From Ptychomitrium polyphyllum (taxonomy: Eukaryota), in contig OZ316775.1 of assembly GCA_973851085.1 (NCBI GenBank), forward strand, positions 19,034,001 to 19,098,000: a stretch of 64,000 nucleotides of DNA, given 5' to 3'. A program made the translations under genes and the position numbers. The notes under the pieces are model-generated. The model saw only the letters and a list, made by a program, of their open reading frames with translations. It had not been told where the DNA came from and did not search any database. Positions 1 through 62,534 of the stretch are shown here, one piece after another (position 1 is the first letter of the stretch; every line of letters begins with the position of its first letter).

Positions 1-2498
1 TCGAGACGGTCGCCTGACAGGCCCTTCTGGAACCCTTGATGTTCGTGCTTTTTAGCTCGTCGCGTGAATTGTTCAGCTCGCGATACTTTTGGGTTTTTGT
101 ATCTCTGGGAGAATGGAACAGATACGCGGTTATGGAGTGCGTTTGTTGGGAGCCTTGAAGTTTGGAGAGCATTTGGAGTATTTTAATTCGTTCAAGATGG
201 CCGACATGCGACTGACAGGCTTTTTTGCAACCTCTTACACATCTTGGTTCAAAATTATCGCCCGCGTAGACTATTGACCTTTCATTCTGATATTGTTCGG
301 CGAAGCTAGTTGCTTCCCTGGAGAACTGGCTTACCTTACGAAGAACTGGCTTTTCTGAAGAACTGATTTTGGTTCATGCATGAACTTCTGATTGTCAGAG
401 TCGCACAGATTTGTAACGATTCGAATGTATCTACTCTTGGGGTGTCTGGACTATTTTAATTCGTTCAAGATGGCCGAATCGCGACTGACAGGCTTTTCTG
501 AAACCCTTCACATACTTCATTTCAAGCTTCCAATCTGCGTTTTCCTTTGACCTATCGCAGCAGTCCGTTGATTTGTGAAGATCGGACTTATTGTTCTGCG
601 TGATGCTGGTTCATGCGTGAGCCTTCTGGTTGGCAGAGTAGCCCACATCCATCAGCTTATGGGCGCATGCATGTCTTGGGGGCGGAGGACGTACGGAGTA
701 TTTTAATTCGTATGAAGATTTCACTCCTTCCAGACGGCTGACTGCCAGGACTCCACGAACCCCTTCGCCCTTCTGCTTCTAGCTAATCGCATGCGCTGCT
801 TCATACATATGTCCCTTGCGTTGTGATCTGGTTCATCGTTGAACTTCTTCTGGTTGGCAGAGTTGCGGAGTTCCGCATCAGTATACATCCGACACTCGAT
901 GTGCGTATTCCTGGAGTTTGAAGGACGTTAAACTCGTTGCAAGATCTAGCCCGTGCCAGTCGCTGCATCCAGGCTTTTTCTGGAACCCTAATCATGATCC
1001 TTTTTGGTTTTAGTCGAATTGATCTTTTTATATAGCCCTTTCAGTACTTTGTATTCATCGATAAGCTGTATTTGACTTTCGTTTTCGCAGTCGGGCGTGA
1101 ACAATCTGAAGAACGCTAGTATTTAAACTGAATTTACTCGTCTGGAGTTTAATTCGCTTCTGACGGTTAACATACAGGGTTTTTTTGAAACCCCCTTAGA
1201 TTTAGCTTTAAGCATGTTTTGGTCTTATAGTTTTTTTCAATAGAAAATGACGGGCAATCTAGTTCATTGGTTATCTGCTTTTGATTGGCAGACGCGCTCT
1301 AATATTCCAAAGATGGCGAGTACTTTTTGTACGCAGCTTGTACCGTGAAGGAGATTTGAAGTTCTAATTCATACACGACGGCCTACGCACAGGCTTTTTT
1401 TGAAACCTTTCCCTTTGGATTTTAATCATAAACCTGTGCTCCCTATGCTCCCCATGCTCCCTTACTACTGTGGTTTATCAACCATGTTATGCTTTGCAGT
1501 TTACCGAGTTCTGTGATGAGTTACAATACGAAATGTGATGGTGCTATCCAAAGAGCGATTTTCTGATTTTATTTCGTTAAAAGATTGATTAACAGGACAT
1601 TTTGAATCCTTGATGAATCGTTGAATTTCTAGCTTTTGTAACCTTTGAGCATATAAGGGGTGATAATTTATCGTGAGTTGCTACAAGTGTCGAAGGTGAC
1701 TGTCTGGCAGAGGGGCATAGATCTACGCTTAACGGGAAGTGCGACCTGGAGCGGAGAAATTTTGAAGTATTTTAATTCGTTGGAAAATATTCGTTTGACA
1801 GTCGATGGACTCCTGACAGGCGTTTTTGAAACCCTTTACATACTATTTTTGATCACTTCATTTCAGCTTCCTGCACCAGTTAATTGGATGCACATTTGTA
1901 TGATGTGTTATTATCAAGAGTAGCTGGAATCTTTCTTTCACAAATCCTCTGCTAGTGTTTCTGGTTCATCCATGATCTGCTCTTGGTTGGCAGAGTCACT
2001 CAGTGCCAGTGTTGTGGAGGCATATATCCCTGAGCGAGGACTGGATCGAGCATTTGGTTGCCTGGAGATTTTACTCGATGAAGACATCTAAATGACAGGC
2101 TTCCTTGGAACCTTATTACTTTAACTAGCTTTGAACTGTATTGCTTCGTTTACGGATCCCGATTCCATGTGGTTTGCTTTATTGGTGAGGTGCTCTTGCT
2201 TTGACAGAGGTGCACAGATATTTTGGAGATTACTTTTGGTATGCGTTACTCTGAAAGTATCTGGAGGAGATTTAATTCGCTTCCAACGGTCGACAGACAG
2301 GCTCTTTTGAAACCTTAGTCAATTGCTTTATGCCTCTTAGAGTTTCGTTCTAGCTATAATATCTTATGTGGTTATTCATTGGTATACTGCCTTTGGATGC
2401 AATTAGGGAACAAGAAGCATTGTCAGCTTTCACTTTGACGCACGACTGGAGATTTAATTCGCTCCGGATGGCTGTGACACAGGCTCATTTGAAACCTT
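1..2498 (+). repeat. Tandem array of >=12 diverged ~220-bp units with conserved motifs and variable segments (candidate structured ncRNA array); truncated by window start
   Basis: Motifs recur in the order GGTTCA..TGA / YTGGTTGGCAGAG / variable / CTGGAG-TTTAATTCG / GAYGG / CAGG-(Y)n-GAAACCYT / TAGCT. CAGG anchors are at 18, 216, 489, 746, 970, 1175, 1390, 1593, 1817, 2096, 2298 and 2480 (spacing 182-279 bp). Strand is assumed. Confidence 0.9.
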
Positions 2499-3520
2499 CC
2501 TCTGTTGAATATTTATCTTGGTGTTCTATGTGATCTACATCAGATGTTCTGTTTATACGGGAAACGCATTTACTAGGAAACATCTTTAATAGAGGATGGT
2601 CATCTAGAGGATTGGTTTATAGGACAACTAGTCTTTTGATGCTCAACAGGGAATTGTCTGTTCAGATTCGCATGTGTCAGCACTATATATCGGAAAAACC
2701 TACAGCTCTGTTGTTCATACAAGTGACATTTACGCCAGTTTCGGGAGTATTTCGATTCCTTTATTTGGTCTAACTGAGATTAGTTAGGCTTCTTTAGGTT
2801 GTAGGTTCTTCTAAACGCATGGTTGTCATCTGATAAATTGCTGCAAGTTCTTTCATATGTTTAAACAGCTTTAGTGATGTCTGTTTGTCAACAGCGTTCT
2901 TAGTTTAGATGTTGAATCCTTTCAAATTTACCCGAATTACAAATTACAGCATTTGATCTGAGATATTAGAATTCAGCACGTTTGAATATTTCGTAACCGG
3001 GATCTCTTTGAATTACGTTAGTATAGTGGGTGAACAGGATAATTTGAAGTGTAAACTGCGTACTCCGAATCATACATGGTAAGGTTCTGCCTTGAAATTT
3101 CCACATGTATGTATCGTCATATTACGTGATTGAATCTGTACTATGTGCCGCGAATATTGGGTTTGCAACTCGCTAGTGGTTAAGGACTAGATGTACTGTG
3201 GCGTCGTTGTGTCGAAGCTGTTGAGTTGATAGAGAATGGTGCAATTTTTAATGAAACTATGCATCCAGGGTATTTGATTGATGTGATTTTCTTTTATGGG
3301 GTTTTGAAAATCTTCTGGTGAATCCTCATACTGTAGTATAATTCAGTGGAATTTTATGTTTAGTTTCATGTATAGATATGTCATCAACCTGATGAAGATG
3401 ATTCACAGCCTCAATATTATATGGCCTTTACGCCAGAGAAAGGTGGACTAAGGATAAAGGTAATGCCCGGTGCTGGATGTATCCGATAGTAATGATGGAT
3501 TTTGCATATCTGTACAGAAC

Positions 3521-3690
3521 GAGGAGCTTGAAATCTGGATGTGAAGGATTTAGAAGATTTGGATGTTGCGAGAAGGAGAATCTGGGCGCTGTTGGGAAGA
3601 GCTGGATCTGGGCGCTGCGAGGAGGAGCTGAATCTTGGTGCTGCTTGGAGGAGCTAAATCTTGGCGCTGCGAGGAGGAGAAGCTGGATAT
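3521..3690. repeat. Degenerate ~25-bp minisatellite (GGAGCTGAATCTTGGCGCTGCGAGG-like), about 6 copies
   Basis: Repeated GGAGCT(G/A)(G/A)ATCT(T/G)GG(C/T)GCTG visible at 3575-3690, with looser copies upstream. Confidence 0.75.
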
Positions 3691-5062
3691 TAGAAGTGTA
3701 TTATTTAACGGCTATCGTGCTGTGCCATGTTTAATTATCATGGTTGTATTTTTATTATACACTAAATACACTGATACCGCAACTTAATGTTATGTTTAAA
3801 CATTTCTGAAGTGCTTTGCTATACTTTGATATGTGAAGTACTTTGAATCTTATTAATTACCCCATGTTTTGTCTTGTTTAACCATCCTCCGTAGATTATA
3901 AAATAAAAGTACAAACTACGTCCTTTAGTGTTTTAAGGAAATGCTTCACACAACCCGAGATATGACATACAAGAAATGCTCACTGCAAAGAACAGCTCGC
4001 TTTTCACAATTTCCACCTAATCGCGAAATCGGACCAATTTCCTCATTCCGAATGTTCAAAAATGTTCTACCCTAGTATCTTCTATTCTACGAGTGAGAAG
4101 AGCAGGCGACGCTATGTTTTCCTTTACTCCTTGTAAACAGGACGCACGGAGATTCATGACGCCCTTATCGTCTTCGATTCACCCGCAGTGGAAGTAGCGC
4201 ACCACAAATGCCTGGTTTATCCCGCTAAAAGAAATGTAATTGATGTAAGATTGAGGTCAAATCCATTACTGAATAATCTAGGTCATGTGCGCCAGTAATT
4301 TCTAGTTGTTTGCGTCAGGTAATCACGTACAGCCGGCCTGGTTTTCCATTGCTACCCCTGTCTTTTCACCTTAGACCATTCAGAACCTAACATCAACCAA
4401 AAGAGAAGTTAAGGTGCAGCACAAGCTGACATCCACAGGAGTCATAGATTTACTCCTCCATGGTTCTAAGTGCGCTTAGGGTCGTACCCAAGATTTAACT
4501 ACTTTAAATTTCAACAATCTGATAAAGAACCTTAGAAAATTTGAAAATCGTGTTTCCATTACATTAAAACATCTTTCCGAATTTGGAAATCCACAGAAGT
4601 TTGCTTTTCTTTAAACTTGGATCTCCATGCCCCATTGCAGAAAGTCATAGTTATAAAGAATCTACTTCTCCTTGGCTACAAATGACTCTGATAAGGAAAC
4701 TCATTGTCATTACGGAAGTGTAACTGCTCAAATTCAAACACCGACCATCACATCCTTCACAGTTTAACAGCTGCAGCAGCAATCCCAGCACCACCTGCTC
4801 CAGCGGCTGTAGCAACTGTGGGAATCATCTCAGTTGAAGGTCAATTTCAGGACTACCGTTGCCATAAGTGCAGTGAAATCATTGAAAACATCGGTGTGAG
4901 GAGTCGGGATGCGTACATGAAGATTCGGAGATCTTGATCTCGATCTCCGAGGACACTTCAATCTTATGTTATGTTGTGCAATCACTGCCAATCGTTAAAG
5001 TGATGGGATTTTGAAGTAACACTCTCTGGTTGCAAATGTGGTGTGATGTTGAAGCTATGTCG

Positions 5063-5071
5063 AAACCCTAA
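5063..5071 (+). promoter_or_regulatory. Telo-box (AAACCCTAA) upstream of centrin ATG
   Basis: Exact motif ~70 bp 5' of the start codon. Further copies at 8603-8611 (reverse) and at 24335-24358 near other gene starts. Confidence 0.4.
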
Positions 5072-5140
5072 AATTCTGTGGAACAAAGGAACCTACCGGT
5101 CGGCAGCCATCAATTGAAGTTGTGCGGTTAGGTGTTGGTG

Positions 5141-6793
5141 ATGGCGAGTCTAGAACGGAACAGGAAGTGGTCGGCTTCTTCGCCTCTGTCCAGGCCTCTC
5201 CCCACACCTGCATCCGAACCGACTTCACGCATCACCACGTCTTTACCCCTGCCTTATGTGGGAGTCAACCCCCGGAGTTCCATCAGTGGGAGAGTATTCA
5301 GAAAACATGCGTTCCACAGGATCACTGAGGAGCACAAGCAGGAGATACGGATGGCATTCGAGTTATTTGATTCGCGGAAAGTTGGAAAGCTCAATTACCG
5401 TGAACTCAAAGTATTTCTTTGTTCTCCCATGATTCAGTGGATGTGTATCTCAACTCAGTTGCAGCGAAGTACTCACCATTCATGTGGTGTCTGTTTCACC
5501 TCCTGGAACTGAGTGGTGGTTCATTTTGCTTAGCAACTGTCAAAAGTTTGAGTGTTGTTATCACTGAATCTGCACATTCTGAAATTGAAAGTGCATTTGT
5601 CGCAAGAAATATGCCTTGGTTGGAGTAGTACTCTAAGGAGTTCTAAAAATCGAATTAGACCAGACTAAGCTATGCTTGATTGTACCTCGATTCAGGTGGC
5701 AATGAGAGCACTGGAGTTTAACGTGAAAAAGCCAGAGGTGAAGATGCTGCTTGAGAAATTTTCTAAAGATGACAATGATGAAGTTAATTATGAAGAATTC
5801 ATGGAAATTAGTAACTAAACCTGCTCTCTCCACTATTTGTGGTCATTTGCTCATCCTCGGCCGGTCCTGCACGTTAGGTCAAGAAATTCATGTGCATTCA
5901 CTCAAGTTTTGCAACCTTTGAATACGGATTGGTTAATCATCACATATGTGCTAGGTGGCAGCAGTGTTGATATCCTCATCTAACAAAAGTGCCTGCAATT
6001 AGATTCAATCCTAGTCGAATCCTCATAAACTGCATTCTTTGGTGCCAGTGGTTCATAAATACAAAGACAGAGACCCCAATGAAGATGTGATGAAGGCGTT
6101 CCGATATTTCGACGAGGACGGGACCGGGAAAATTTCTGTAAGTCTCTTTATGCTCCATTGTGGCTCATATATGCTAACAGTCCATTAACATTCATGTTAG
6201 GTCTTAGGCCTAATCCTTCTGGTCCTTGAACGTACTACAAAATATTCTGCCATCTGCAGAATGATAGATCCATTTTCGCTTGTAAATTCTCTTTACAGCT
6301 CAAGAACATGCGTAAAATCTCAAAGGAGCTTGGTGAAAACATCACAGATGAAGAACTTATAACTATGATTGATGAATGTAAGCTTTCTGCGAAACCTTGA
6401 ACTTCTTGAGAATCTGTAGGTGCTGAATTGATGGGTATAATCTGTTGTTCCATTTGCTGCTCTCAATCTATGAGTTTCCGAATGGAGAACATTTATGAGT
6501 CACAGATTACGAGAAAATAAATACTGTGCTGACCGATGTGTTCCACTTTATGTCTTGCAGTTGACAAGGATGCGGATGGAGAAAGTAAGTCTCCTCATGC
6601 TCAGCACCAAAAAAACCATTTCCTTCCCTTCAACGGCAGTCTAGATCATCAGCTTTGTTGTGAGATTGTGGCCATTTCCATAGAGAACCTAGTACCTAAA
6701 TCTTCTGTTTTCTGTTGCTCGTGTTTAGTAAACATGACCGAGTTTTTTGAAATCATGAAGACGAGGCACAAAGAAGATGACCCGAGTCACTAA
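5141..6793 (+). CDS. Centrin (EF-hand, centrin-3/Cdc31-like), 6 exons: 5141-5410, 5696-5810, 6049-6137, 6299-6377, 6561-6584, 6729-6793
   Basis: GT-AG introns join in phase to give ...ITEEHKQEIRMAFELFD...ELK|VAMRALEFNVKK...DPNEDVMKAFRYFDEDGTGKIS|LKNMRKISKELGENITDEELITMIDE|FDKDADGE|INMTEFFEIM, the centrin signature. Confidence 0.92.
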
Positions 6794-7974: not shown

Positions 7975-8250
7975 AGATGCACTCCCACAACCGTCGTGCC
8001 ACCCAAGATCGTTACTGCACCCAAAAAAGCCACTGCATCCAAAACCGTCACTGCATTCGAAGCCGTTACCACATTCAAAATCGAGACTACACACAATTTC
8101 GCCACAGCGCCCCAAACCGTCGCTGCACCCCAAAAATGTCACTGCACCCCAAAAATGTCACTGCACCCCAAAAATGTCACTGCACCCCAAAAATGTCACT
8201 GCACCCAATACCGTAACGGCACCCAAACGCGTCGCCGCACGCAAAACCCA
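7975..8250. repeat. 19-bp minisatellite CAAAAATGTCACTGCACCC (4 perfect copies 8131-8206) with degenerate flanking copies
   Basis: Direct repeats read from the sequence; they explain the overlapping low-complexity ORFs at 7806-8408. Confidence 0.9.
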
Positions 8251-9127
8251 TCGATTAGACACCGAGGACGCGCACAATGCGCAGAACGAAATGAGCAGAG
8301 GGCGTAGATAAGGAGGAAGGCAGCGGACAGGGGGTGGCACGGTGTGGGAGCGTCGCACTGAAAGAGCGTGGACTGCACTGCACTGCACTGCTTTGGACTG
8401 GACTGCAATGCAGTGGACTAGCCCGCAGGACGTCGCGAGGGTTCTCCAGGCTTGGGCCTCACTTACTGCCGAGTGCGGGCGCTGTCAATCCCGCGGACTC
8501 CAACGACGCCACCTCCGTCATAGTCCGGGTTCGTTTTTCCCCTCAGTAGCCATCGCTTCCATCCGCAGCTCACTCCAGCGCGACTGCTTCCGTCTTGGAG
8601 TTTTAGGGTTTGACATGCCCGTCATTGTGTCCTGTTACCGGTGGCGTTGAGGTGGGAGGTTCTCCGGTAGATTCAACGGATTGGATTCCTCTCTTGAATG
8701 CCACCAGCGTCGGGTCGTGGGTTGATTGGGTGGGGAGTAGATTCTGGGCGGAATTTTGGGGTTTTTCATTTTTAGGGTTACGGAGTTGGGATTTCCGGTG
8801 GTGAGGTTGCGGTGCTGCGTTGCGTTGCGTTGCATTGCGTTTCGTTGTAGTGCGCGTGATGTTGCGTTACGGTGATACGGCAAGGTTGTCTGCAAGATGT
8901 TTGGGGTTTTTTCGTTGTTGGATAGGTTTAGGATTTTGAGCGGATTTCACCCATTTCTGCGGATTTTTTACTTCGAGCGTAGGATTTTGAGTGGTAGGTC
9001 GTAGGGTGATTTCCGTTTACTTGACGAGGAAGTTCTTTTTCCCTTTTTCTTCATTCCTGGGATTATTTCAGGGTTTGTGGATTGAACAGCACTTGGCAGA
9101 AGTCCAACTCTAAGCACACTGTCAGCA

Positions 9128-11683
9128 ATGGAACGATTTAGTATGGATAATGAATTTGAAGAGGGAATTTGGATAGACGACGAATTTTTTGCCCGGAAGC
9201 AGAAGACGAAGAAGCGACAAACGAAAGAGGAGGCGTTGTATGGAGTGGAAGACAGTGATTCCGATTACGAAGACTCAGGGAAAAGACGGCGTCGAGGCGA
9301 TAATAAGAAGAGCGACTTGACGAAGCCAATAGGATTCGTGTCAAAGGGGACAGTCATGCCATCGGAAGAGATTGATAAGGAGGAGAAAGAGAAAGAGGGG
9401 CATGCGAACGGTGTCGGTGCTGGATTAGGGTTTGGAACCGCAGGCCTGGGATCTGCTGCTGGTTTGGGGTTTGGCGCAAAGGGGAGCGGGAAACAGTTCG
9501 AAGAGGTTGAGGAGGTTGAGTTGCTTCCTACAGCGTTTGGGAGGAGAATTAAAGAAGGTGCGGAGCGTAGAGAGATGGAGAGAGAAAAGGGAAAGAAAGC
9601 TGCCACGAAGGCGAAATCATTGGCGAGCGGAGGTCCAGGTTCTGTCGCTGGTTTTGAAGTGCACACTAAAGGGATTGGGATGAAGCTGCTAGAGAAAATG
9701 GGTTACAAAGGTGGTGGTCTGGGTAAAAATGAACAGGGTATTGCGCAGCCAATTGAAGCCAAGCTTCGACCCAAGAATATGGGTATGGGATTTAATGAAT
9801 TTAGGGAAACAATGACTGGGTTGCCTCCTCCTCCTGGGATGCAGCAAACAGACGAAGATGTTGTGGTCGAAAAACCTAAGTCCAAGGAGAAGCTTTGGAT
9901 GAAAAAGAACAAAGGGAAGAAGAAAACAGAGCTTCGCACTGCAGCTGAACTTATAGCGGAGAAAGAGGCACAGAATGGAGGGATTGTTCACCAGACAATT
10001 CTGGATATGCGGGGCCCCCAGCCCAGGGTGTTAACTAATTTGGAGAGTTTGAATGCCGAGCAGACGGCAATTGAAGACAATACTCCGATGCCTGAGTTGC
10101 AGCATAACCTACGCCTGATTCTAGACATGACAGAGGCTGAGGTTCAAACGTGCAATCAAAAGCTACAAAGCGAGAGGGACACGGTGTTGATTCTAAACAA
10201 AGACAGAGAGAGACTGGAAACCGCAGTTAGCGCACAGGAGAAGCAGATTATTATCATGGAAGCTGTGATGACCTCTCTTCAGCAGATTCGGAGACAGGTT
10301 GCGGAGGGAGGAATGAATTTAGAAAATTTAGCCAACGTGTTTGCGAGGATTAAGCATACATATCGAGAAGAGTACAAGTTATTCAGTATTGGCCTCATAG
10401 CCCTTTCATTTGCATTGCCGTTGATGTCTAACTTGTTTAGAGGTTGGCAACCGTTTCTGCAACCGCAACATGGTATCGAGGCTATTGCTGCATGGCAGGA
10501 GCTCCTGCAGGGAAACGAAGCAAATGATCATGCAATATTCCAAGATGTTGATAATTCACCTTATGTTCAGCTAGTCCTTGAGGTCATATTCCCACATATT
10601 CGATTGGCCACTACTAACGTATGGCAACCTCGAGATCCAGAGCCGATACTGAGGTTTCTCGAAGCTTGGGATAAGGTGCTTCCTGGAGGTATTAAACAGA
10701 GTCTTCTTGAAGGACTTGTAATGCCAAAGCTAACTGCTGCTGTAGACGCATGGGATCCCCGGCTTGAAGAAGTACCTATCCATGCATGGCTTCATCCTTG
10801 GCTACCTTGGCTAGGTACGCGAATGGAACCTCTTTATGTTCCTATTCGATACAAGTTGAACGTAGCGCTGGTAAATTGGCATCCGGGGGACTCATCTGCT
10901 CTTGCCCTCCTCTCCCCTTGGAAAACCGTGTTTGATCCTGCCAACTGGGAACTGCTGATTGTGCGATCAATAATGCCCAAGCTTATCCAGGCAATGCAGG
11001 AGTTTGTAATAAATCCTGCCAATCAAATTTTGGATCAGTTTCACTGGGTTATGGCTTGGGTTTCTGCTGTTCCTGTGCATCATATGGTTAATCTTTTGGA
11101 AATACATTTTTTCCCGAAGTGGCACCAGGTTTTACATCACTGGCTCAGTGCTAGTCCTGATTATGACGAGGTTACTGCGTGGTTTGTGGGTTGGAAGTCC
11201 TTGCTTCCGACGGAGCTTTTGGCTAACGAGAAGGTACGACACCAGCTTAGTTTAGCACTAGAATTAATAAATCAAGGTATGGAGGGAACGCCAAGCGTTC
11301 AACCAGCAACACGAGATAAGCTGACATATCTTCGAGCCGCAGAACAGAGATTATATGAATTTTCCCAGCAAGCTCATGGAGCCGCATATGTACAACCGCA
11401 GAAGCAGCATGCACCAACTTATATGGACGAGAATGGATCTGCAGCAGAGATGACTTTGAAAGAAGTGGTAGAAGTGTTTGCCCAAGACAACGATGTCCAT
11501 TTCATGCCTAAACCAGGGCGCACACATGAGGGTCTACAGGTCTACAGCTTTGGTGCAGTCAACGTGGTTGTAGATACTGCGAAAGAGAGTATCTTGGCTC
11601 AGACCGGAGATGGGTGGAATCCGGTCCATCTTGAACAGATCTTGGAGATGCATCGCAGCCGTGGTGGTAGCCGGTGGAAGTAA
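9128..11683 (+). CDS. NTR1: TFIP11/STIP/Ntr1-like spliceosome disassembly factor (G-patch + GCFC domain), intronless CDS, 851 aa
   Basis: N-terminal MERFSMDNEFE...TKEEALYG; G-patch HTKGIGMKLLEKMGYKGGGLGKNEQGIAQPI; PMPELQHNLRL; IHAWLHPWLP; C-terminal FMPKPGRTHEGLQVYSFG. Confidence 0.93.
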   Translation: MERFSMDNEFEEGIWIDDEFFARKQKTKKRQTKEEALYGVEDSDSDYEDSGKRRRRGDNKKSDLTKPIGFVSKGTVMPSEEIDKEEKEKEGHANGVGAGLGFGTAGLGSAAGLGFGAKGSGKQFEEVEEVELLPTAFGRRIKEGAERREMEREKGKKAATKAKSLASGGPGSVAGFEVHTKGIGMKLLEKMGYKGGGLGKNEQGIAQPIEAKLRPKNMGMGFNEFRETMTGLPPPPGMQQTDEDVVVEKPKSKEKLWMKKNKGKKKTELRTAAELIAEKEAQNGGIVHQTILDMRGPQPRVLTNLESLNAEQTAIEDNTPMPELQHNLRLILDMTEAEVQTCNQKLQSERDTVLILNKDRERLETAVSAQEKQIIIMEAVMTSLQQIRRQVAEGGMNLENLANVFARIKHTYREEYKLFSIGLIALSFALPLMSNLFRGWQPFLQPQHGIEAIAAWQELLQGNEANDHAIFQDVDNSPYVQLVLEVIFPHIRLATTNVWQPRDPEPILRFLEAWDKVLPGGIKQSLLEGLVMPKLTAAVDAWDPRLEEVPIHAWLHPWLPWLGTRMEPLYVPIRYKLNVALVNWHPGDSSALALLSPWKTVFDPANWELLIVRSIMPKLIQAMQEFVINPANQILDQFHWVMAWVSAVPVHHMVNLLEIHFFPKWHQVLHHWLSASPDYDEVTAWFVGWKSLLPTELLANEKVRHQLSLALELINQGMEGTPSVQPATRDKLTYLRAAEQRLYEFSQQAHGAAYVQPQKQHAPTYMDENGSAAEMTLKEVVEVFAQDNDVHFMPKPGRTHEGLQVYSFGAVNVVVDTAKESILAQTGDGWNPVHLEQILEMHRSRGGSRWK

Positions 11684-34699: not shown

Positions 34700-37600
34700 T
34701 GGTTCATGGAGCGATTCATAATTAATTCACAAATTCATAATTTTTGAAAAATTTATAATTAAGTCACTGTATCTATAGACGAACTCAAAAAAAATCTTTT
34801 TCAATTGTTAATAAATTTATATTTGTAAGTTTATTAGGAAAGATAAGCATAGAAGACTTAAATATATGAGAAGAATTTTTATTTTTTGAATATAAAATAT
34901 ATATTTAAAACAAATAAGGCAGCCATCATATCTTCATGATAGCATTCAACGCAAGTTTTTGTTCCAAAAAGTGAAGTCTTAAATAAAGTCCTAGAAAATG
35001 TCTATACAGATATGTACAAACAATCAAACATACAAACAAAACAAGTCTATAAGGTTTCTTTTTGTATATTAAATATAAAAATTAAAACGTGCAATATGCG
35101 TTAATTTTGTCATAATGCAATTTCAATATATTTTAAAATTTTGTTCAAGTTTCTTGATTCTCTTTGATGTATTGAAGAAAAAAATTCTTCAATTCAATAC
35201 CATCTAATTTAATTTTAATTTGAAAAAAAATTAATTTTAATTTGAAAAAATAACTATTTAATTAATTCCTAAAAGACCTCTTTTTATAAGAAGGTTTTTA
35301 AATTTTGGACAGGCTTAAATATTGACAATTTTAAATGAATGCTTTTTTTTATAAATTAGAAGTATAGGCATATATTAGCTTTGCATTAGTATAATCATCT
35401 TCTTTTTAATAACATTAAGACCAAAGTTATAGTGCCTTAAATAGTTTTTGCCACTTATTAGGCAATTTGGAACATTTTATTATGTTAGTGTCTTACGTTT
35501 AAGATTTATTACAAATACAATTAATATGATATTATTTGGAAATTTTATAAATAACTTTTTTCCTATGTTATAAAATTTTTATTCAAATAAGAATCAAAGT
35601 TGAAAACATTACAAAATAGGATGCAAATATATCAATATCTTTTATTAAATTTAAGAAATAAATGTTAGAAGTTTTGTTTGTTTATTATTTATACTATTTT
35701 ATTTTTTTCAAGAAGCAACTATCCTTGTTTTGAATGTTTTTTTTTGACAATTTATAATGAATAAAATTTACCAAAACAACATTGTCTCTATTAATTATAT
35801 TATTTTTTTTCTTTCATTGCAAAGTAATCTTGAACATGTTATATTCCTTAACTACCTTTCAAGTTTAACATGCAAAGTATGTACTATGGTTAAAAAACCT
35901 CAACTTTTGCATAGCATGAAATTTTATTATAATAGCAATCAAAGTTTGTTAATCTTATTTTATATAATGCAAAAAACTTCCAGATGCTATGATTCTCAGA
36001 TAATGTAATCAACTTTGCTATAATCAAATGTATACATTATTCTTATAATATATCTGAAGATAATATGGCTGAAGGTGGTTAAAATTGTTTTTTTTGGGAT
36101 TTGTTTCTTTTTATTAAAAATAGCATTTCTTAATGTTTTTCTTTTATAAAATATAGTTAAGGGATTTTAGGAAGTAATAGAAATTAGCTTGAAAAATTAT
36201 GAATTTAATATTTATACTTCAAATATAAATATCTTATTATAAAAAATCACTTTGTTTAAAAGAAACTAATTTCATTTATATTTATTGATTTTTTTAAAGG
36301 CATGATATGATTTAGTATACTTGATAATAGATGTTTTAAGTCCATTTCTAATATGAAACAAAGAAATTAAGAAATTATTCAATTTCTAATAAGAAAAATA
36401 AATTTTTGTTTTATTTGATATTAGTAACAAGATGCAAGTTTTGAATGGGCGATTTTGCGTGGATATACCTTACTCAAAATAATATTTGTGTCTACATTAT
36501 AGTAAAATGGCATATTCCAAATGTTGTTAATATCAAACAAACAATTGTTAAACTATAATAGTTTAACAAAATATTTTTAAAAACTTTAATTAATCATTAT
36601 GATGATTCTATCTTCTAATAAATTTTTAATAAACTATATTCACAACATGTAGTCTTCAATATTAATTAATTTTGACAAAAACATAGATTTATTCATGACC
36701 ACATTATATATTATTTTCTTTCAAAAGATTTTAAAATATTTGCTTTAAAACAACATTAATTGAATTTTTTTGTTTTAAAGGAAGAAAATTTAATCAAAGC
36801 TGCATTCAATTCTATATAAAACTAGTTTGTGATTAATTCAATGAACGTACAAATTTTTTTAATTACAAAGGTTATGTATTTTTATATCTTTATTAAAAAG
36901 GTTCTTTTACTAAGTTTTTTTGTTTACTAAGAAAATTCAAAAAAGTATTTTGCATTATGATAAAATTTTATATATTTTGTATAAATATTGGTTTTTTTTT
37001 CAATGAATAAATATTACTTGAATTAAAAAATTAAAGAACCAATGAATTACGGCTCAAGTTTTCTAATCTAGAACAAAAATATTAATATTTTTTTAATGTT
37101 GTAAAGGCAATGATATTAATTTTATTGCAATTATGCCATTATATATTTAAAAGACATATTTAAAATATGATTCACTAATAAAAAACACTAAAATTTTTAA
37201 ATACATGCAACTAAAATTTTGGATATGAAAAATGAACTTGTAACTTTGAATTTTATGAATTCTATATTGAATTGAATAAATATTTTCAATTTCAAATCTA
37301 TCAACATTGACAGTTTCCATTAGACTATAAATGTTTATTACTTTACAATTGACAAATAACATTTCCTCTTAATCTATTATTAACAATTAGTATGCATTTG
37401 AATATTGTATTTGTTTTCATGTACATGGCCTAGAACCTTAATTACAAGGGTCATCATTATTCTCTTATGTACCACATGGCTATAAATAATACATATAATA
37501 CAAGCATGTATATGGTAACCATTGAAAGTTTTGCAATATACATCTAATTTTTTATAATATTAGTGTACAATCTATGATTATATAGTTTTCTTGATATGCC

Positions 37601-38450
37601 ACTATCTTCTAAGACTATTAATAAACTACATATTTATTTTCAAAATCACAACAAATCAATTATCTTCTAGCCTTTTTATCATTACTTATTCCATTCAAAT
37701 TTGGTTTGTTCAATTAACAACAAAAAACTATATAATAGCACAAGGCATTGAATTCAACTTAAAACATATAAAAATGAGGGAATTGAAATGTATAAAAGAA
37801 ACTCAATAAAAATTATAACTTTTTCACATTAATTGAATCTAGTATTATATAATTTTTATGTGGCACACAAATAATAAATGTATATTAATATGTATTAATA
37901 AAAAAATGTATACAAATACACATAGATAGTTGAATATAAAAATTTTATAAATTTTTTATAAATTTTCATTTGGTTAAAAATCAAGCGCTTTGATTAAAAG
38001 AAATTGATTATTTTTAGCATGCCAAATTTTTTTTGATAAAACTTTTATCTATTCAAAATTATATCTAATCTAATTTAATGTTCTTTATTTATTAACTAAT
38101 TGATTTATTTTTGGTTGTTTATTTGTTTTATAAGACAATAGTGTTCAAGCTAAAAATTGTTAAATAAAAAACTTAATTACGGAAATTATTAAAATGTTAA
38201 AATTCAAAATTGATCCACATTATACATTGTAGGTATTTCATAAAATTGTTTGGTTGGGTTTTCCACATTCACTTCCATTTACACTTATAAGACTTCAAAA
38301 GATCTGATAAAGCTATTAGTTCCTTTTGAAGTTTATACAAAATCACTGAATTCACAAATGCTTTATGAATGGATAATTCACATTTCAAACTTTGCATTAA
38401 AACGCCCTAAAGAGTTAAAACGAAATAAACAAATCATGTTTAAGGTGAAT
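34700..38450. other. Extremely AT-rich non-coding tract (probable ancient TE relic)
   Basis: Long A/T runs, almost no CpG, only spurious ORFs. Confidence 0.5.
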
Positions 38451-41400
38451 CATAAATAAATGATCAGTCAGGCAGTAGCATGCTCAAATAGACTAAGTTA
38501 ACATAAAATGGTACATGTGTGTAATTCATTGAATAAAAGAACGTGTAACATTTGCAAAATCATGACAAATTCTTGGCTGTGAAGACTAAAGTTTCTTCAA
38601 GCGACGTCCAAATAAATATTGATTTGTTGTGTTGCAATCCTTCTGGAATTGGAGATAAAACCCTTAAAAATGAAAAAAAAACTTCAACCACAGAGTCTAA
38701 CCATACTCAATCTTTGGAAGTCCCTAAAACGGATTCCCTGTGCTCCAGTGATAGCACCCTTCTGCTACATACATTCTGTCAAATGTATTTGGAGAGAAAG
38801 CCCCTTCACAGCTGTAATGTTTGGCAATGTGTTTGAGAGAAACTCCACCAGGTGAGAGCTCTTTATTGTGAATACACTACTCCCAGAAAGGCTACTACAT
38901 GGCATAAGGCCTGTGGGTTTGGAGGTGGGGCCCAGGGCAGGGGCTGGCCCAAGGACCACACAAGGGCAAAACATGAGATCGCTGGCCACGTGGAGGGTAC
39001 TTGAAGCTCCTCATGGATTCATTATCATCTAGTCTTCCAGTACACTTGCTACTAAGCTAGGCAATGAGTAATGGTTGTATACCAGGTACGCCCTACGCTT
39101 CAATCAGGTGACCACTCCATGTCATCATCATAGGTGAATGAGTTAAATGATCCTCTACTTCTAAAAGAGAATCATCTCAACTTCTTCTTAGTGAAAACCG
39201 TTTTACTACTGTTTAGCATGCCTGGTGATTATTACCCAGTGGATCTTACATGAGGGCCATCTGCAGTGCATGTGAGGGCCTTGCGACTCTGGGAGAGGCC
39301 TACCAACTTCCTGCCTGGCTGAGCTTTGGCAGTACCAGCAGCCTCAAAAAAAATTGTTTTTGCCTCCAGTGTCACACTATCTGTAACCATGGCAACACTG
39401 AGGTTGCAAGTTCCTGCCCTATGCCAACCTCCAGAAACACCAATCCAGTATTCTCAATTGCAATGATATCTTTGCACTGGGTGGACATTGTTGGGAATTA
39501 TGATTTGGTGATAAATGAAGACCTTCTGCAACTGGCCAGTATACAAGAATTGGATCCTGTGTTTCATTCTAACCTAGAGGTTTGAACTAGATTCATTGGA
39601 GTCTCTGTTTGCGGAATGATTCAAGAGATAAGTTGCTTTGAGTTCAGTGCCTGGCATGAGCTCTGAGCCCTTGAGCTTTCCTCTAAAACCCACTTTGTAG
39701 TAGCTGTAGGAAATGATTGTAGTAGTGGTATGAATGGGTGGGACATTCATGTTAATATTGTGTTGTTCTTTTCATATCCTAGACTGTTGAAGCTGTCCGA
39801 TGTATGATTATTTGTCCCATTGAGCAGTTCCTCAGGCTGTCTTTTCTTAGCTACACTGGCAGAAATGTTGTGACTTGTGAATTTACAGGTAGTGTAGAAT
39901 GGCCAAGTCTTGGCAGGAAGGAGACCCTAGAGATAAAATAGCCAGCAAATTAATGCTGTTTGTACTTTACTTCACCATCCTTTTACTTTTACTTTTTCCC
40001 TCTCCTAATTTTTGGCTCTTGGGAAATTTACATATTGTGCCCCCTACTACTCATGGATTTCTTACCTATACAAAAATGCCATATCTGCTGTCCTTTGTAG
40101 TCATAGTACAGGAAAGATAAATACATCAGCAGTCATAGGTCTTGAAAAACATGGCACACCACACATATCACATTCTTGAGTAAATTTATATGTAGACTAT
40201 CTATCAGACCAACACTGGTATTATATGGAATCAACATTAATGTCAACATTCTTCATGTCCAATAAGTTTTAACATATCTGTGGAGCTGGCATAACATACT
40301 TCAACAGTGATGTGGCTCTGGTTTTTGAATCTATGAGAAAATATCCCATGTATAGCATGAAATCTCAAAGAGCTGTATTGTTGCAAAGTAAACTGTTAGT
40401 AAAGGATTTTTAAACTAGGTAAATTTATACTTGCCCTCTTTATACAAGACTTAGTTACAACTACTAACCAAAAAATAGTCCCATCCACTGTTTAGTGTAT
40501 GTTACAGTCAAACTGCTTAGCCAATGTTAAATTGGAAGAAAGCAAATAGGGTCAAAAAAGAAGAGATGTGGAAGGAGGGGACCTGTGCCAACTGTTGATG
40601 AATGGTCTAGAGCCATGGAACACAAATGTGGTGAAGGATGGGCTGTCACACAGCTTCTTGCCTTTGGACTCTCACACTCCCACAAACAATGAGGACTCCT
40701 GAAACTTAAAATTTGTCTCCAAAACAGCAGCACTCCTCTCACAGTGCACTAAAAATTCTAATTAGTGAGGTTCCACTATTTCATGATTCTGAGCAATCAC
40801 TCAATTTACATGTTATGATTTGAAGAGAAATCTCCATTTACTGATGTTTAGAGTAGTGAAACTATGAATCTGAGAGTTTCATACTGAAAACTTTGAGTGC
40901 AGCAATGTGGCATGCTTCATATCACTGCACTGCTTATAGTTGTGGCATTCTTCTGATTATGTCCAACATTCTTAAGTTGAAAGGACACTTAAATCATGCT
41001 AGTGGTAGATAAATGCCAGAGCTCAACACTAAGTGGTATGCTTAAAATTGTTATGCACTCCCTGTAAACTGTGACAATATTTGGTGTTTGTTTGAATTCC
41101 ATATGATGTGGTGCAAATCAATCTAGACTTACATCAATATACATGCTCCAATTTATAGGTTTTGTATTTTTTAAGACTAATTTCTGTAATCTGTACCTGT
41201 TTTCTTCAATTACTAATGTTTCACTTTTAAATACAATTATTTTTAATATAGTGTCATGGTAAATTACTATGTAAATGACATTATTAAAAATCAACTTTAG
41301 ATATCTTTGTTTTTTAATAAAAAATTTATTTTTAATTAATGTTGGTTAGTTTAAATTTGATGTTCAACTTTGTATTTAAAATTGGTTACACTAATTACAA

Positions 41401-43551
41401 TAATTTATGCTTCAAGAAGGGTTTTGCTGTGAGTTTATCAAATTTTTTCTCTTTTAGCTGAGTTTATGGTTAACTCTATCTTCAATTATTGTTTACATAG
41501 GGTAAAAAAATGTTCAAAAAACGGATAAATGTTATGAAATTTCCTGTTTAAGCACAATATTCAAATGCAAGAGGCCTTTCACTGTTGAGGTAATCTTTAT
41601 TATAAACTTTTTCAAAATTTGAGAAATGATGATCATTTCTATAGAAGGTCCCTTTCATGATTTTAAAGATCTTCAAACTTGTCGGATGTGATGCCTCAGC
41701 TAAGTACTGACTCTAAGAGGGAAAAAGTGATGGGAGTTTTGTGGCTCTAGTCTCCAACACCTACAAAGCTGTGAATCCCTCAGCTCAAAATGATACACTG
41801 TTCCTAAAAGTTCATTCTTATTCACAAATGATTCAACAGCAACAAAGGGTTTGTCACTGTCAATTATTGAAGTGCATCTTTGGGAACCAAAGTAGGGCCC
41901 AAAGATAAATTTGATGCAGGATACATGCATCCCTTTGACAACTCCACAGTCATGCTTCATACTTAAGAGGCCTATCCTGAATCTTTCATCATCTCTTGAA
42001 TTGTGACATTCAATTTCATGAATACTGGAAATTGAGGCATGGAATAAGTTGAGGTGGACCTAAATTGAAAAGTGTCTGGCAGTGACTTAATGAGGCAGTC
42101 TCCTCTGTGAGAAAAGAACTCAATAGCCCCATGCTGTACCTTTCAAAAGCTTTTCCAGAATCAGGGATCTTTGATTTTTGTGTTGGACATGATCCAAATA
42201 GGATCGATGCTGAGATTCAACAAAGAAATTGATTCTTCATCTCTGTTGGTTGAGTTCCAATGGGCTTACCTGCCAGCATCCTTGCCAAGTGTTTTTTCTG
42301 ATGGAGCTGATACTTATTTATGATGATTCTGGGGCCCTAATTGGATCGAATCAACTGTACAGAAAGGCCAGTACAAGAACACATACAGTGCAGATACCCA
42401 GGTGCTACAGCTCTATCTTCACCAGTTCCTGTTGAATCACGGTGGAACAAAATTCCTAATTGCTAACTGCAGAGACCGTTTTACTTTAGTCAATCCCATG
42501 CAACTGTAGCAACTTTGTTATTCATTTCGACATTACATTTCCAATGCAAAAACTTTCTTTATTTCCTTGATTCAAAATGGTTTAGAATACAACTGTATTA
42601 CAAAGTAATGAACTCATGAGATACGATATTCAAATATAGTTCATCAGAGCACAGTATTGTCTGGAAGCAGACCTTGCAGTGCAGAGTGAAAATCGTCCGT
42701 GCTGCAAAAATGGAATGAATCCAACTTTTCCAAAAAGGTTAAACATATCATTGACTTATCATTGACGTAACAATTGCATCAATATGTGACATCAGGATGA
42801 ATAATAACTGGTTACTTCTCACCGATAAATCTATCAACGGTGAACTTCAAAGCATACTTCTGTTATTGACATACCACACTTCTGAACTGTAACAGAAAAG
42901 TGGGACTCTCTTGTCCAACCTCAATATGTGTGACATACATCAAAGAAGAAGCTGAATGTCAGTATCTAGATATTAACGAACTTGGAGGGCAGACATACAA
43001 ATTGTCAAATTATAATTCCAGAATGTGATAAACTCTTCTCAGTGCAATAGCATAAAAAGATCAAATCAGCATTTCCATCAAGAAAATAAGCTCTCAAAAA
43101 TCCAAAGTTTGGCACAAGAACCTAACACAGGATCGTCTAGTACAGATGAGGTTGCTACCCAATAATTGAGCTCTTTCAAGAGTGTCGGATGATACCTAAT
43201 TTAGGTTGAGGAATTTTGGTACATGAGCTGAGGAGTCTTCCCGAAGACATGCTCGTTACTCGCACGTGGAAGCCCTAGTACAATCTTTTGAAAGTAATAT
43301 AATACTTGGAAACCCCAGAAGGAACAAAATTGGGCTAGCTCACTAATGTTGATGCCCGTTCCGTTAATTCAATAAGAGTCCAAAAACAAGTATCAGTCTT
43401 CTTGAATTTGCAAAGCTCTAGTTCTAGTACTGGTCCACGCTAGTGGATGTGCAATATCTCGGTGGTAATGAAACGGGAATAAGTCACAAACTCGTATTTA
43501 CGATGTTAAAGACCTTCTTCCTGATGATGTCCCCATCTATTTACTTGATTT

Positions 43552-46720: not shown

Positions 46721-49700
46721 ATGGGGAGCGATGTTCGCCCTCCGAAGAGATTGTGTATGAGGGAGGATGGAGGGAGCACAAGTACCGGTGAGAGTTTTTT
46801 GTGATTTTAGTCGCCTTCTAGGAGCATCATTTACTCTCATAGGGATTTGAATTTGATCGACAATTTGAGTTGATGAAATTTGAGCTGATGAATTTGGGTT
46901 TCTTACTTTCTAAATCACTGTCGTCACCCGTTGTTCTATTATGTAGCTGGGCTTTCAAGGTACGACGTATTCATAAGCCATCGAGGCCCTGATACAAAGG
47001 CGACCTTTGTGAGCTTTCTCCAGAAGGAACTGGATGCAAGTGGACTGCGGTCATTCTTAGATTGCAAATCCATCGGTTTTGGTGAGGATAATTGGGAATG
47101 TATAGGGCATGCCATTGAGAAGACGCCCATATGCGTGGTCGTCTTTTCGGAGAATTTTGCAGAGTCGGAGTGGTGTATGAGGGAGTTGCACGTCATGTTG
47201 CGTAGTCCTGGCGTGAAGGTCCTACCCGTCTTCTTCAACGTGCGACCGAGCGAAGTGAGGTTCCCTGAGAGTGGTCAACTGAAACGCGGGTTTGAGAAGT
47301 TGATGACGCGACATGACAAGAAGGACATTGATCAGTATAGAGCAGATCTCAAAGAAGCATCAGGGCTTAGGGGATGGGAGCACTCAAGTACACAGAAGAG
47401 GTAAATGTTCTAAAATAACGCAGTATGACGAGTGCTCAGAATGAGATTGACATTGAGGATGGATATTGATGTACTGCGCATGATTTTGGTTGTAGGTTGC
47501 TTGGGGACCTGGTGACGGAGGTTGCTCGTGAAGTAATCAAACTGGCCAACAAGCCACTTCCTTTGGATGTAGGTGAATATGTCATTGGTGTTACACAAGT
47601 AGCAGATGAGATCATTGAGATCCTTGACAAGAAGGAGGTTTTGATTTTGGGATTGTGGGGAATGGGTGGAATTGGAAAGTCGACATTGGCAAGGGAGCTG
47701 TTCAACAAGTTGTCTAAAAGAGAGTTTGATTCAACATGCTTTGTTGAAGACATCGCGGAGAAGGTGAACCGAGGGGGCGTGGTAAGAGTACAAAGTCGTA
47801 TTTTGAAAGACTTGTGCAAAAATGGTCCAATGCAAATTGATGATAAATCTGAAGGGAAGTCCATTCTTGAAAAAAGGTTATGTGAGAAGCGAATTCTTTT
47901 GGTCTTGGATGATGTTTGTGACAAACATGAGAGGGAGTATTGGATATCCCGCAAAATGATGTCAAGGGGCAGCATGTGCATAGTGACATCCCGTGATAGG
48001 CGTGTGTTTGAGAGTATGATTTCATTTGATATCAGATGTGAGGTACATATCCACGATGTCCAAGCACTAAGCAAAGTGGATTCCAAATGGGTATTTGCAT
48101 CTTATGCATTTGGAGGTCATGGAAGAGTGAAGCGAGAAGTTGAAGAGTTGGTCACGAATATAAGTGAGGCATGTGGAGGAGTTCCATTGGTGCTAAAAGT
48201 GTGTGGAGCTCTCTTGAAAGGTGAGTGGAGTTTGGACGTTTGGAAAGATGTGATGAAGAAATTAAACCGTGGACGCATAATGGATGAAGAGAAGATCTTT
48301 GATTGTCTTCGAATTAGCTATGATGCTCTTCAACAAGAGCAACAACAGATGTTCTTAGATGTTGCAAGTGCATTGCTTGGAGAATCAAAAGATTTGGCCA
48401 TACGAGTGTGGAACTCACACGGGTGGAGTGCTATATTGGATGTGCGGAGCCTTGTGGAGAAGGCTTTGATCACTGTGGATTGGGCTGGGAACTTTAGGAT
48501 GCACGACCACTTGAGGGATATGGGACGTAAGATTATCATGGATGAAAGGCGGAAAAGTGGTGTTTGTAAACACTTATGGATGCCGGAGTCATTATTGATA
48601 CTTGAAGGCGAGGAGGTATGTTTTGAAATGCATATTTATTGGTCTCTTTATTTAATAACTTCATTTGTGAAGCATGAAGCATGTACGTAATGGATGTGGT
48701 TGGTAGTGTAGGGATATGATAGTGTTGTGTTTCAATTGTGCAAATTCCTTTGTGTGCATCAGAGTAATAAACATGCTTCTTGATTCATGTGATAGTTGAT
48801 GTTGGATGCTAAAATAGCTTTAATACATACGTTCTTTGCAGGCATTGCCAGGTTCTCTTGAAACAATGGTAATCTACAAGGATGGCAAAAATGTGGATGA
48901 TGAGGACAATGATTGTTTTGATGAGGAAGAAAATGAGCGGCATGGTGGTGATATCAATTTGGATGTGGTGCGTATGAAAGATTTGCGCATTTTAATATGT
49001 CATGGAAGCATAAATGTGACATCTGGGTTTGGAAAATCTTTGTGCTGGTTTAAATGCCAAAGATGGGAGCATACATATGGATGTATAAGTCCTATGATAT
49101 TGCCAAATAATAAGTTGGTGATCCTAAATTTGGTAGGATCTAAAAGATTAATTATACCGGAATGTTTTGGAAGCTTACGGAAGTTGGAAGTATTGGATCT
49201 AAGTAAATGTGGACACCTCAAAGCATTGCCCGCTTCTTTCAGGCGTTTGAGTAATTTGCAGAAGCTTCTCCTTGGTGGTTCTGGAATGGAGTGCTTGTTG
49301 GATTCTTTTGGTGAGTTGGCAAAGCTGGAAGAATTGTATTTGAGTGGATGTAGAGAACTCAAAATGCTTCCCGCTTCTTTTGGGCGTTTGTGTAATTTGC
49401 ACGAGCTTCACTTGAGTGGTTCTGGAATCGAGAGGTTGCCGGAATCTTTTGGTGAGTTGGTGAAATTGGAAGGGTTGAATTTGAGTGGATGTGGACAACT
49501 AAGAACACTTCCTACTTCTTTTGGGCGTTTGAATAAATTACAGAGGCTTCATCTTGATGGTTCTGGAATTGAGAGCTTGCCGGAATCTTTTGGTGAGTTG
49601 GTAAAGTTGGAAGTATTATATTTGAGTGAATGTGAACAACTCAAAATGTTATGCATTTCCTTTGGACAACTAAGGAATTTGGTGGAGCTTCGGCTTGAAT

Positions 49701-57132: not shown

Positions 57133-58146
57133 TGTCATGGACATAGGTTATGCAACATAGTCTTTAGAACCTTCTAAAACCTTTTGGCATATTATAGTAG
57201 CTTCTTAGAATACTGTCAATGCTTTCATAGTCGTTCCACATCTTTGGAAAGCTTTTTAAAAACATTCCAAGTCCTTGGAAAATTTCCTAAGAAGGTTCCA
57301 CTTACTTGAAAAACTTCTTAGAAAGGTCCCACGTCCATGAAAAATTTCCTAAGAAGGTTTTACTTTATTAAGAAATTTCCTAAGAAGATTCCATTATCTT
57401 AAGAGGCTTCTTGGAAAAGCTATATTGACTTCTAAAACATTCTTAAGCCTTGCAACAAGCTCCTTTAGAAGTATCGTAGGAGGTACAAGCCTCATATTAT
57501 AAATAAGAGGCAAGACAAGGTATTCCTTGGTCTTGCAAATATAAATTTTGGATCATATTGTATTCTGCCTTGCTCTAATCTTTGTATCGGTTCTTATTAA
57601 TCATTAGCTCTTTGGAAGTTGTTCATTAGGAGACACTTTATCTCTACTTTTTATTTCTTATGTTCCTAATAATTTGGTAAGATTATTCTTTATCTTTGTC
57701 AGAGTTAGGGATTTTGAAGAAGCTAGTGGATTATGCATCTTTTTTGGAATTCCATAGCATCTTAGTACTTGTGGATTACCCTCTTTTATGCTGATATCAT
57801 AAATTGATTTTTTTTCTTTTAAATAGCAAGTAATACTTCTTTTAAACAATTGATCAATCTTTCAAAGGATGTAAATTATCTCGTTTTGAACATAATCATA
57901 GTTTTCTTGTCTCTTACAATCTTAAATATGGATAACGTGCAAGAAACATGAGAAAATAGGTTTGCAACTATTATAGACCTTCAAGAGTTATTAAACACAG
58001 TTTAAATAAAGTTTGCTTGCTTCAATACCACCAACAATTTAGAGCAGTACATTTGACAAGCTAAAGAATTCAATAGCAATATTCAAAGTCTACATCAAGA
58101 GGTTGTTTAATTGCAAGAAGCCAATATTAGAAGAGAAAGCTTACGT
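57133..58146 (+). mobile_element. 5' LTR plus start of gag of a gypsy element, inverted relative to 61501-62534
   Basis: Starts TGTCATGGACATA; reverse-complement homology to 61501-62534 throughout, ending at ...GAAGAGAAAGCTTACGT. Confidence 0.8.
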
Positions 58147-62100: not shown

Positions 62101-62534
62101 TTGTGTTGGCACGACGAAGGAATACCTTGTCTTGCCTCTTATTTATACTATGACTCTAATATCTCCTAAAATACTTCTAAGGAAGCTTCCTTCAAGGCTT
62201 AAGAATGTTTTAGAAATCTATAGAACCTTCTCAAGAAGCTTTTTAAGATGTTGGAACCTTCCTAAGAAGTTTCATAAGGTGGTGGAATCTTTTGAAGAAG
62301 TTTACCTAGGAGATAGAACTTTCATAGGAAGTTTTTTGAGGTGGTAGAACCTTCTTAGGAAATTTTCCAAAGAAGTAGAATCTTCTTAGGAAGTTTCTTA
62401 AGGTGGTGGAACTTTCACAAGAAATTTTCCAAGGACTTGAAAACGGCTAAAGAGACATTGAAAGTATTTTAAGAAGCTACTATAATATATTAGAAGGTTC
62501 TAAAGAATATGTTGCATGATTTATATCCGTGACA
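59151..62534 (-). mobile_element. Degenerate Ty3/gypsy chromovirus: LTR, gag, protease, internally deleted RT/RNaseH, integrase, chromodomain
   Basis: gag ISMPNKFDGSRSKLRGFIQQVRLF; protease ALLDTGATACFID; PFRPIYNLSQ; integrase SSAYHPQIDGQTERVNQILEQYL, LGPFEI, VHSVFHVSLL; chromodomain EYEIEEILDSR...TWEP; multiple stops and frameshifts. Confidence 0.92.

Follow-up and report, generated by a model that had tools for sequence, protein, structure and literature searches.

What are the short, ordered sequence islands that recur along the left edge of this stretch of DNA, and do they act as RNA, as DNA or not at all? The window analysed here is 64 kb long, and its first 2.5 kb carry 12 homologous units, arranged head-to-tail on the plus strand, of which 11 are whole and one is cut by the window edge (Table 1). 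We find that this is a real, selectively constrained and uncatalogued non-coding array. In good agreement with the preliminary description, which proposed a tandem array of at least 12 units of about 220 bp, the 12 anchors give a mean period of 224 bp, and recomputing the unit spacing returns the same 182–279 bp. Each unit consists of a body of 124–158 nt and a T-rich spacer of 54–137 nt (T fraction 0.34–0.48), the bodies being GC-richer.

Table 1. Positions of the array units and their spacers in the window (nt)
Feature	Positions	Strand	Remarks
Unit 0	1..34	+	3' end only (YGG, CAGG-Yn-GGAACC); window edge cuts the rest
Unit 1 body	90..232	+	Degenerate 5' motifs; start set by eye
Unit 2 body	371..505	+	All motifs present
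Unit 3 body	608..761	+	TTTAATT enclosed in a long hairpin; core folds best of all units, z −2.4
Unit 4 body	830..987	+	9-mer variant
Unit 5 body	1052..1192	+	Short-core class
Unit 6 body	1261..1407	+	Short-core class; 9-mer variant
Unit 7 body	1471..1609	+	Most decayed copy, 4 bits leave-one-out; start set by eye
Unit 8 body	1680..1833	+	
Unit 9 body	1963..2112	+	Short-core class
Unit 10 body	2176..2314	+	Short-core class
Unit 11 body	2373..2496	+	Last unit; short-core class
T-rich spacers, 54–137 nt	interspersed in 35..2372	+	Between bodies

The whole units share a mean pairwise identity of 0.41 and fall into two classes: units 5, 6, 9, 10 and 11 have a common ungapped core of 60 nt, and units 1, 2, 3 and 8 a common longer form of the 9-mer region described below. 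Within one class the scaffold copies are ~60–77% identical. In a leave-one-out test with profile HMMs, 10 of the 11 whole units score 38–71 bits and unit 7 (1471–1609) scores 4 bits. Profile searches of the window return the 12 units and no further significant copy. At 2744–2761, 18 nt match the long-form 9-mer region at 83%; the profile searches do not pick them up, and a 13th unit may have left its relic there. A 20-nt local duplication resembling the 3' core motif lies at 322–361, in the spacer before unit 2.

At least five motifs keep their order and spacing along the array, as islands of 60–90% identity. The best kept is the 9-mer TTTAATTCG, common to 7 of the 11 whole units (exact at 182, 455, 702, 1148, 1771, 2271 and 2453, with variants at 928, 1363, 1568 and 2069); all of these coordinates and variants had been given correctly beforehand. 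Another is CAGG-Yn-GRAACC, anchored at 18, 216, 489, 746, 970, 1175, 1390, 1593, 1817, 2096, 2298 and 2480. The assertion that this motif is present in all 12 units holds with a relaxed pattern (12 anchors), whereas a strict pattern finds 11 in the array and none on the plus strand of the other 61.5 kb. The idea that every unit carries the same motifs needs tempering, since the remaining ones are less universal: GGTTCA-N4-TGA is exact in 4/11 units, TTGGCAGAG (one mismatch allowed) occurs in 7/11, YGG in 8/11, and TAGCT within 60 nt in 6/12. The TGGCAGAG island resembles an A box. Altogether, 10 or more of the 11 whole units agree in 21 alignment columns.

The plant nuclear origin originally assigned to the window can be narrowed to moss nuclear DNA, judging from its TFIP11 homologue, an intronless gene of ~850 codons at 9086–11683, with its open reading frame at 9131–11680, in otherwise intron-rich surroundings (Pfam GCFC, G-patch and TIP_N). 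Among the best 120 of 466 matches, the encoded protein is 82–84% identical to that of Physcomitrium patens, 57–58% to that of Marchantia and ~50% to those of angiosperms. The first gene 3' of the array on the plus strand is centrin-like and starts at ~5130, about 2.6 kb past the array (EF-hand E 9e-4, under the Pfam cut-off). Two runs of one sample contain this DNA. One contig covers 1–6000 without any difference and may be the source of the window, and in both runs the contig extends at least 3241 bp upstream of position 1; the array may therefore exceed 12 units. The other contig pieces matching the array in the two runs (80% likeness) are partial, 30–40 nt, and no close second copy was found among the contigs of these runs. 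An apparent second copy joined at 2155 carries a doubled GATC at the joint and was set aside as a probable proximity-ligation chimera. Elsewhere the window holds small tandem repeats between genes (26 bp at 3567–3686; 18–19 bp at 8000–8246) and a very AT-rich stretch at 35000–42500 (20–34% GC), where several 2.5-kb bins are strongly depleted in CpG. At 46892–52438 there are open reading frames that read in translation as TIR/NB-ARC-like, followed by a 1204-codon frame read as LRR, with ~23 copies of a 141-bp repeat. Two blocks of a 31-bp tandem repeat (57265–57393 and 62221–62435), apparently mutual reverse complements, flank retrotransposon-like ORF remnants at 59.4–60.8 kb.

The preliminary description had recognised no known RNA family in the array—neither tRNA nor snRNA nor snoRNA—and no conserved reading frame, and had proposed an Rfam search as a check. 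Searching the 64 kb against Rfam 15 at gathering score returned no family; at E ≤ 10 there were just two chance-level matches in 1–6000 (E 2.5 and 9.7) and none in 340–1020 and 1940–2530. ARAGORN found no tRNA gene, and no tRNA match came from Rfam. Each of the six frames is interrupted by 35–44 stops, the longest stop-free stretch being 56–124 codons, and the conserved core contains a pyrimidine run whose length varies, which speaks against a tandem coding repeat. Resemblances to a tRNA-Sec arm, the U7 hairpin, the RNase P/MRP S-domain, an HDV-like ribozyme, a T-box, Y RNA, snR30 motifs and SSU rRNA were each rejected for wrong motif order or spacing and lack of an Rfam match. A miRNA cluster was likewise rejected: there is no stable fold-back (z positive in 10/11 units, and in 9/11 after trimming; long-arm own-unit pairing p 0.06–0.16). 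Runs of at least five T lie inside 5/11 bodies, which argues against separate Pol III genes. A sigma-70 promoter scan stayed at shuffle level, the model not being meaningful for moss. By blastn there was no match to plasmids and one 33-nt chance match to phages (E 0.06), and a literature search found no description of such an array. The letters of the 9-mer do occur in five papers, among them one with an oligo for an SAH aptamer and two with tables of small RNAs.

We then have the boxes that define the established classes of small RNA. Box C (RUGAUGA), expected near the 5' end, is matched with at most one mismatch in 3/11 bodies, all internally and at scattered places; for box D (CUGA), CTGA lies no more than 25 nt from the body end in 5/12 units, too few for a conserved box. 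An H box (ANANNA) at a comparable hinge place occurs in 2/11 bodies (166 and 2254), and an Sm site (RAU4-6GR) in 1/11. The ACA of an H/ACA RNA lies three bases from the 3' end; ACAG is present in 10/12 units, but is followed by ~15 conserved bases. Judged by these box tests, the units are not members of the C/D, H/ACA or Sm classes, with the ACA leaving a little room for H/ACA RNAs of an atypical family.

That the motifs themselves are under selection, as had been suggested, is borne out by simulation. We simulated neutral divergence along the inferred tree, with the products realigned alike and identity matched (0.39–0.42); in these runs, which leave out gene conversion, sharing of the 9-mer by 7/11 units was reached in 0/450 (maximum 5). 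The 21 conserved columns were reached in none of 300 runs at a uniform rate, and in 26 of 150 when rates varied by a gamma distribution. The motifs are thus kept beyond neutral divergence. The base composition of the array is that of unsilenced DNA: CpG and CWG observed/expected ratios are 0.90 and 1.44, as compared with 0.52 and 0.75 for the retrotransposon-like remnant at 59.3–60.8 kb, and the plus strand is T-rich (AT skew −0.21). Because of this motif conservation, the lack of CpG and CWG loss and the T-rich plus strand, we infer that the islands are under selection within unsilenced, probably transcribed DNA. A silenced satellite or transposon repeat was rejected on the same CpG and CWG values and on the absence of a TRF period, TRF reporting over the array just a 9-bp micro-repeat at 1433–1462.

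The further claim that the units are structured RNAs fares less evenly. Compared with shuffles, whole units show no excess stability, RNAalifold on the automatic alignment yields no pairs, and six fixed-register helices all fail against permutation (p 0.31–1.0). The main signal in favour comes from one plus-strand hairpin: the arms flanking the 9-mer pair better within their own unit than between units at four widths (p 0.023, 0.031, 0.002 and 0.004), a preference that relies on G-U pairs and is absent on the minus strand (p 0.17–0.43), and the TTTAATT motif lies mostly in an apical loop in 10/11 predicted folds. The windows of this test were chosen after data inspection and centred on the motif. 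When 300 window pairs set relative to the anchors are scanned, nine on the plus and four on the minus strand reach p < 0.01, and the 9-mer hairpin pairs rank just 7th and 15th, so that this hairpin does not survive correction. Two further elements were likewise chosen after inspection: in a 5' GGTTCA hairpin the own-unit preference is weaker (p 0.024), and an acceptor-like stem joining the YYTG island to the bases that precede AYGG gives p 0.019–0.075 post hoc. An outer stem, P2b and variable-arm stems give p 0.29–0.47, and a long stem enclosing the core is not significant either. A terminal stem of the sort looked for in box C/D RNAs, GGTT/AACC, forms 28 of 36 pairs and is perfect in 4/9 units, without covariation. 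RNA structure in the units is therefore weakly supported by these predictions, and since the windows were picked after inspection and rank low in the scan, the fold proposed below is a hypothetical one.

Same-strand bodies of RNA size, U-rich spacers, ordered islands and unsilenced composition are together best fitted by one precursor that is cut, and bodies of 124–158 nt with T-rich spacers of 54–137 nt suit the organisation of plant polycistronic clusters. We give about an even chance to the reading that the array is a polycistronic cluster of an undescribed RNA of 125–160 nt, organised like plant snoRNA clusters, with the islands as its working parts. One long plus-strand RNA polymerase II precursor would span the array and would be cut, in the style of plant snoRNA clusters, into separate RNAs of ~125–160 nt. 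These may share a loose fold in which a small hairpin at the 5' end is followed by a middle arm tolerant of change and by a second hairpin presenting UUUAAUU in its loop. In paralogous RNA families, protein- or target-binding parts are kept and stems drift; it would follow that the islands are functional and the variable arm tolerant, which inverts the earlier assignment of roles. The constant islands rather than the variable arm would then bind one protein set or pair with a single RNA common to all units. Decay is likely under way in some copies, most of all in unit 7, in the manner of a birth-and-death gene array. Against processed RNAs stands the fact that no end-protecting box (C/D, H/ACA or Sm) is conserved.

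Does the family have relatives outside moss? A pattern scan of metagenome contigs returned three loci, of which two are distinct. The same pattern gives three matches in 596 Gb of prokaryote genomes, which places the match count at chance level, and a looser pattern gave 17 viral loci. No array was seen at the 23 pattern loci, and Rfam returned nothing on the motif at these loci (16 of 20 covered among the later ones). One of the chance matches, L003, lies near a tRNA gene and a group II intron domain V–VI (5203–5276 and 6592–6669). A single locus, L001, stands out; it is identical to L002 over 701 bases. Its DNA is of fungal type, as inferred from gene content, and the match lies between genes of the NIF-family phosphatase and IF-2B families (Pfam), the latter of which we take to encode the eIF2B beta subunit. 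The element (4895–5085) is non-coding and divergent from the NIF phosphatase gene, ends ~20 nt before the likely start codon of the IF-2B gene and is predicted to fold with a closing stem of 11–13 bp (z −1.2); related to the moss array or not, it may be a 5' leader element. Its flank score of 6.0 is the best of the 23 (next 3.2), with p 0.001 on a flank matrix built from bases outside the pattern and, when two HMMs are used against planted controls, p 0.02 (15 bits in total); one model, R1, misses L001 yet finds an archaeal match. By sequence comparison L001 is somewhat unlikely to be a true homologue of the moss units, and we treat it as a weak lead for a relative outside moss. A long shot that builds on it is an ancient eukaryotic small-RNA class, which would exist as a single copy upstream of the fungal eIF2B-subunit gene and would have been amplified to 12 or more in moss, with a fixed protein-binding frame and arms diverged to a partner or target of their own in each copy.

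The same evidence of conservation and composition would also be produced by repeated protein-binding modules in one RNA that is never cut—a lncRNA, a long 5' leader or an intron serving as scaffold or sponge. In such an RNA the missing end-protecting boxes are expected, and the position of L001 within ~20 nt of a likely start codon is leader-like. However, the next plus-strand gene lies ~2.6 kb downstream of the array, the motif order is constant, and the bodies may be closed by the GGTT/AACC stem (perfect in 4/9), and we consider an uncut modular RNA unlikely.

Quite unlikely, in our estimate, is that the motifs act in DNA, as modules for protein binding or promoter activity that are spaced roughly like nucleosomes. 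The mean period of 224 bp would suit this, as would the missing folding signal in whole units, the weak covariation and the apparent likeness of GRAACCY to the plant telo-box. Own-unit pairing that is specific to the plus strand and relies on G-U pairs is unexpected for elements acting in DNA, and so are the T-rich plus strand and the preservation of order and spacing among at least five motifs.

An improbable reading, for which the body length speaks, takes the units to be diverged H/ACA-type snoRNA paralogues of a kind that Rfam lacks, whose end would be the ACA of ACAGG and whose islands would serve as guides for one shared target. ACAG in 10/12 units is preceded by a hairpin of ~50 nt, and plant snoRNA families show clustered paralogues with conserved targets in the sections of PMC5122169 considered. 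Yet ANANNA lies at a comparable hinge in just 2/11 bodies, the ACA is followed by ~15 conserved bases, the predictions place the best-kept 9-mer in an apical loop and not in a pocket, and no Rfam match appeared at E ≤ 10. In the portion of the plant snoRNA files of PMC5122169 that was compared, matches to the 9-mer are isolated.

The preliminary description proposed an architecture like that of a guide array, in which a constant scaffold would carry unit-specific, possibly target-specifying inserts; this we now hold to be very improbable. The variable arms do differ strongly (47/55 pairs have z ≤ 2, and most are unalignable) and are GC-richer than the spacers. They had been called unrelated between units, but 3/55 pairs exceed z 3 (top 5.1, units 6 and 10; mean z 0.59) as against 0/55 in a variable-versus-spacer control (mean z 0.08); similarity between spacers has a mean z of 0.44. 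Since the variable segments keep partial mutual similarity, they look like drifted copies descended from one ancestor rather than captured foreign spacers. With the boundaries used here they are 39–65 nt long, so that their length is not fixed, and the scaffold itself is just ~60–77% identical between copies of one class. As a group they fold no better than shuffles (7/10 z positive), no conserved guide-RNP box was found beside them in the units, and no effector gene was seen within the 64-kb window. The supposed inserts are in this way better described as diverged homologues.

A neutral old tandem duplication or transposon-derived satellite is hardly credible: the column count alone can be reached with rate variation (26/150) and the simulations leave out gene conversion, but no run of 450 keeps the 9-mer in 7/11 units, CpG and CWG are not lost, TRF finds no satellite over the array, and the contigs of the two runs hold no close copy.

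To our knowledge, new abundant small nuclear-encoded RNA classes are rarely found in land plants. If the reading as a cluster of processed RNAs is true, a single-family cluster of at least 12 copies at ~41% identity that retain the same islands amounts to a natural mutational scan of an unknown RNP, for which the islands would name pull-down probes. If the fungal look-alike holds as well, the RNA would predate the plant–fungus split and would have been missed by the motif screens examined, in the parts compared: the array's family is absent from the compared parts of the plant and fungal screens PMC12218528, PMC8216456 and PMC5640933, and the 9-mer has no match in the supplement of PMC12218528. 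One of these, PMC8216456, describes, in the parts consulted, fungal 'intergenic structures 1–4' of 92–144 nt, some with incomplete H/ACA signatures, in Ascomycota only and mostly as single copies; L001 could be among them, the comparison being by description only.

The array recalls CRISPR-type and other repeat-spacer guide arrays in its tandem alternation of conserved and variable sequence. Unlike theirs, its conserved parts are several short islands of 60–90% identity, and its variable parts are partly homologous and of varying length, with no effector gene seen. With plant miRNA clusters it shares tandem non-coding units on one strand, but its units have neither a stable long fold-back nor a conserved 21-nt duplex. 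GUT15 hosts a canonical-looking tRNA-like RNA, according to the part of PMC6152437 consulted; the moss units are not such RNAs.

Plant snoRNA clusters come closer. Polycistronic precursors with paralogous members are standard among them, and same-strand tandem units of snoRNA size, short spacers and paralogues are common to both in the sections of PMC5122169 compared, the single precursor being our supposition for the moss array. The differences are that the moss array has no conserved C, D or H box or Rfam snoRNA match, and that all 12 of its units come from one family. A non-box ncRNA does, however, occur inside a plant snoRNA cluster, namely HID1 (excerpts of PMC8053127). The Viridi-trans motif, like HID1 near snoR21, has conserved words that differ from those of the array in the rows compared by eye. 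HID1 itself, known from Arabidopsis, rice and Physcomitrium, is a structured plant ncRNA (PMC8053127 and PMC10226578, in part); like the moss units it has no established box class and is reported in moss, and as is proposed for them it lies in a polycistronic cluster. HID1 adjoins three C/D snoRNAs in the account consulted, whereas no snoRNA was detected in the 64-kb window. Likened by description and not by sequence, and within the parts of PMC8053127, PMC10226578 and PMC6095000 considered, no precedent for a non-box RNA inside such a cluster comes nearer than HID1. The moss array probably represents a new family of small RNAs, arranged in a type of cluster that is already known.
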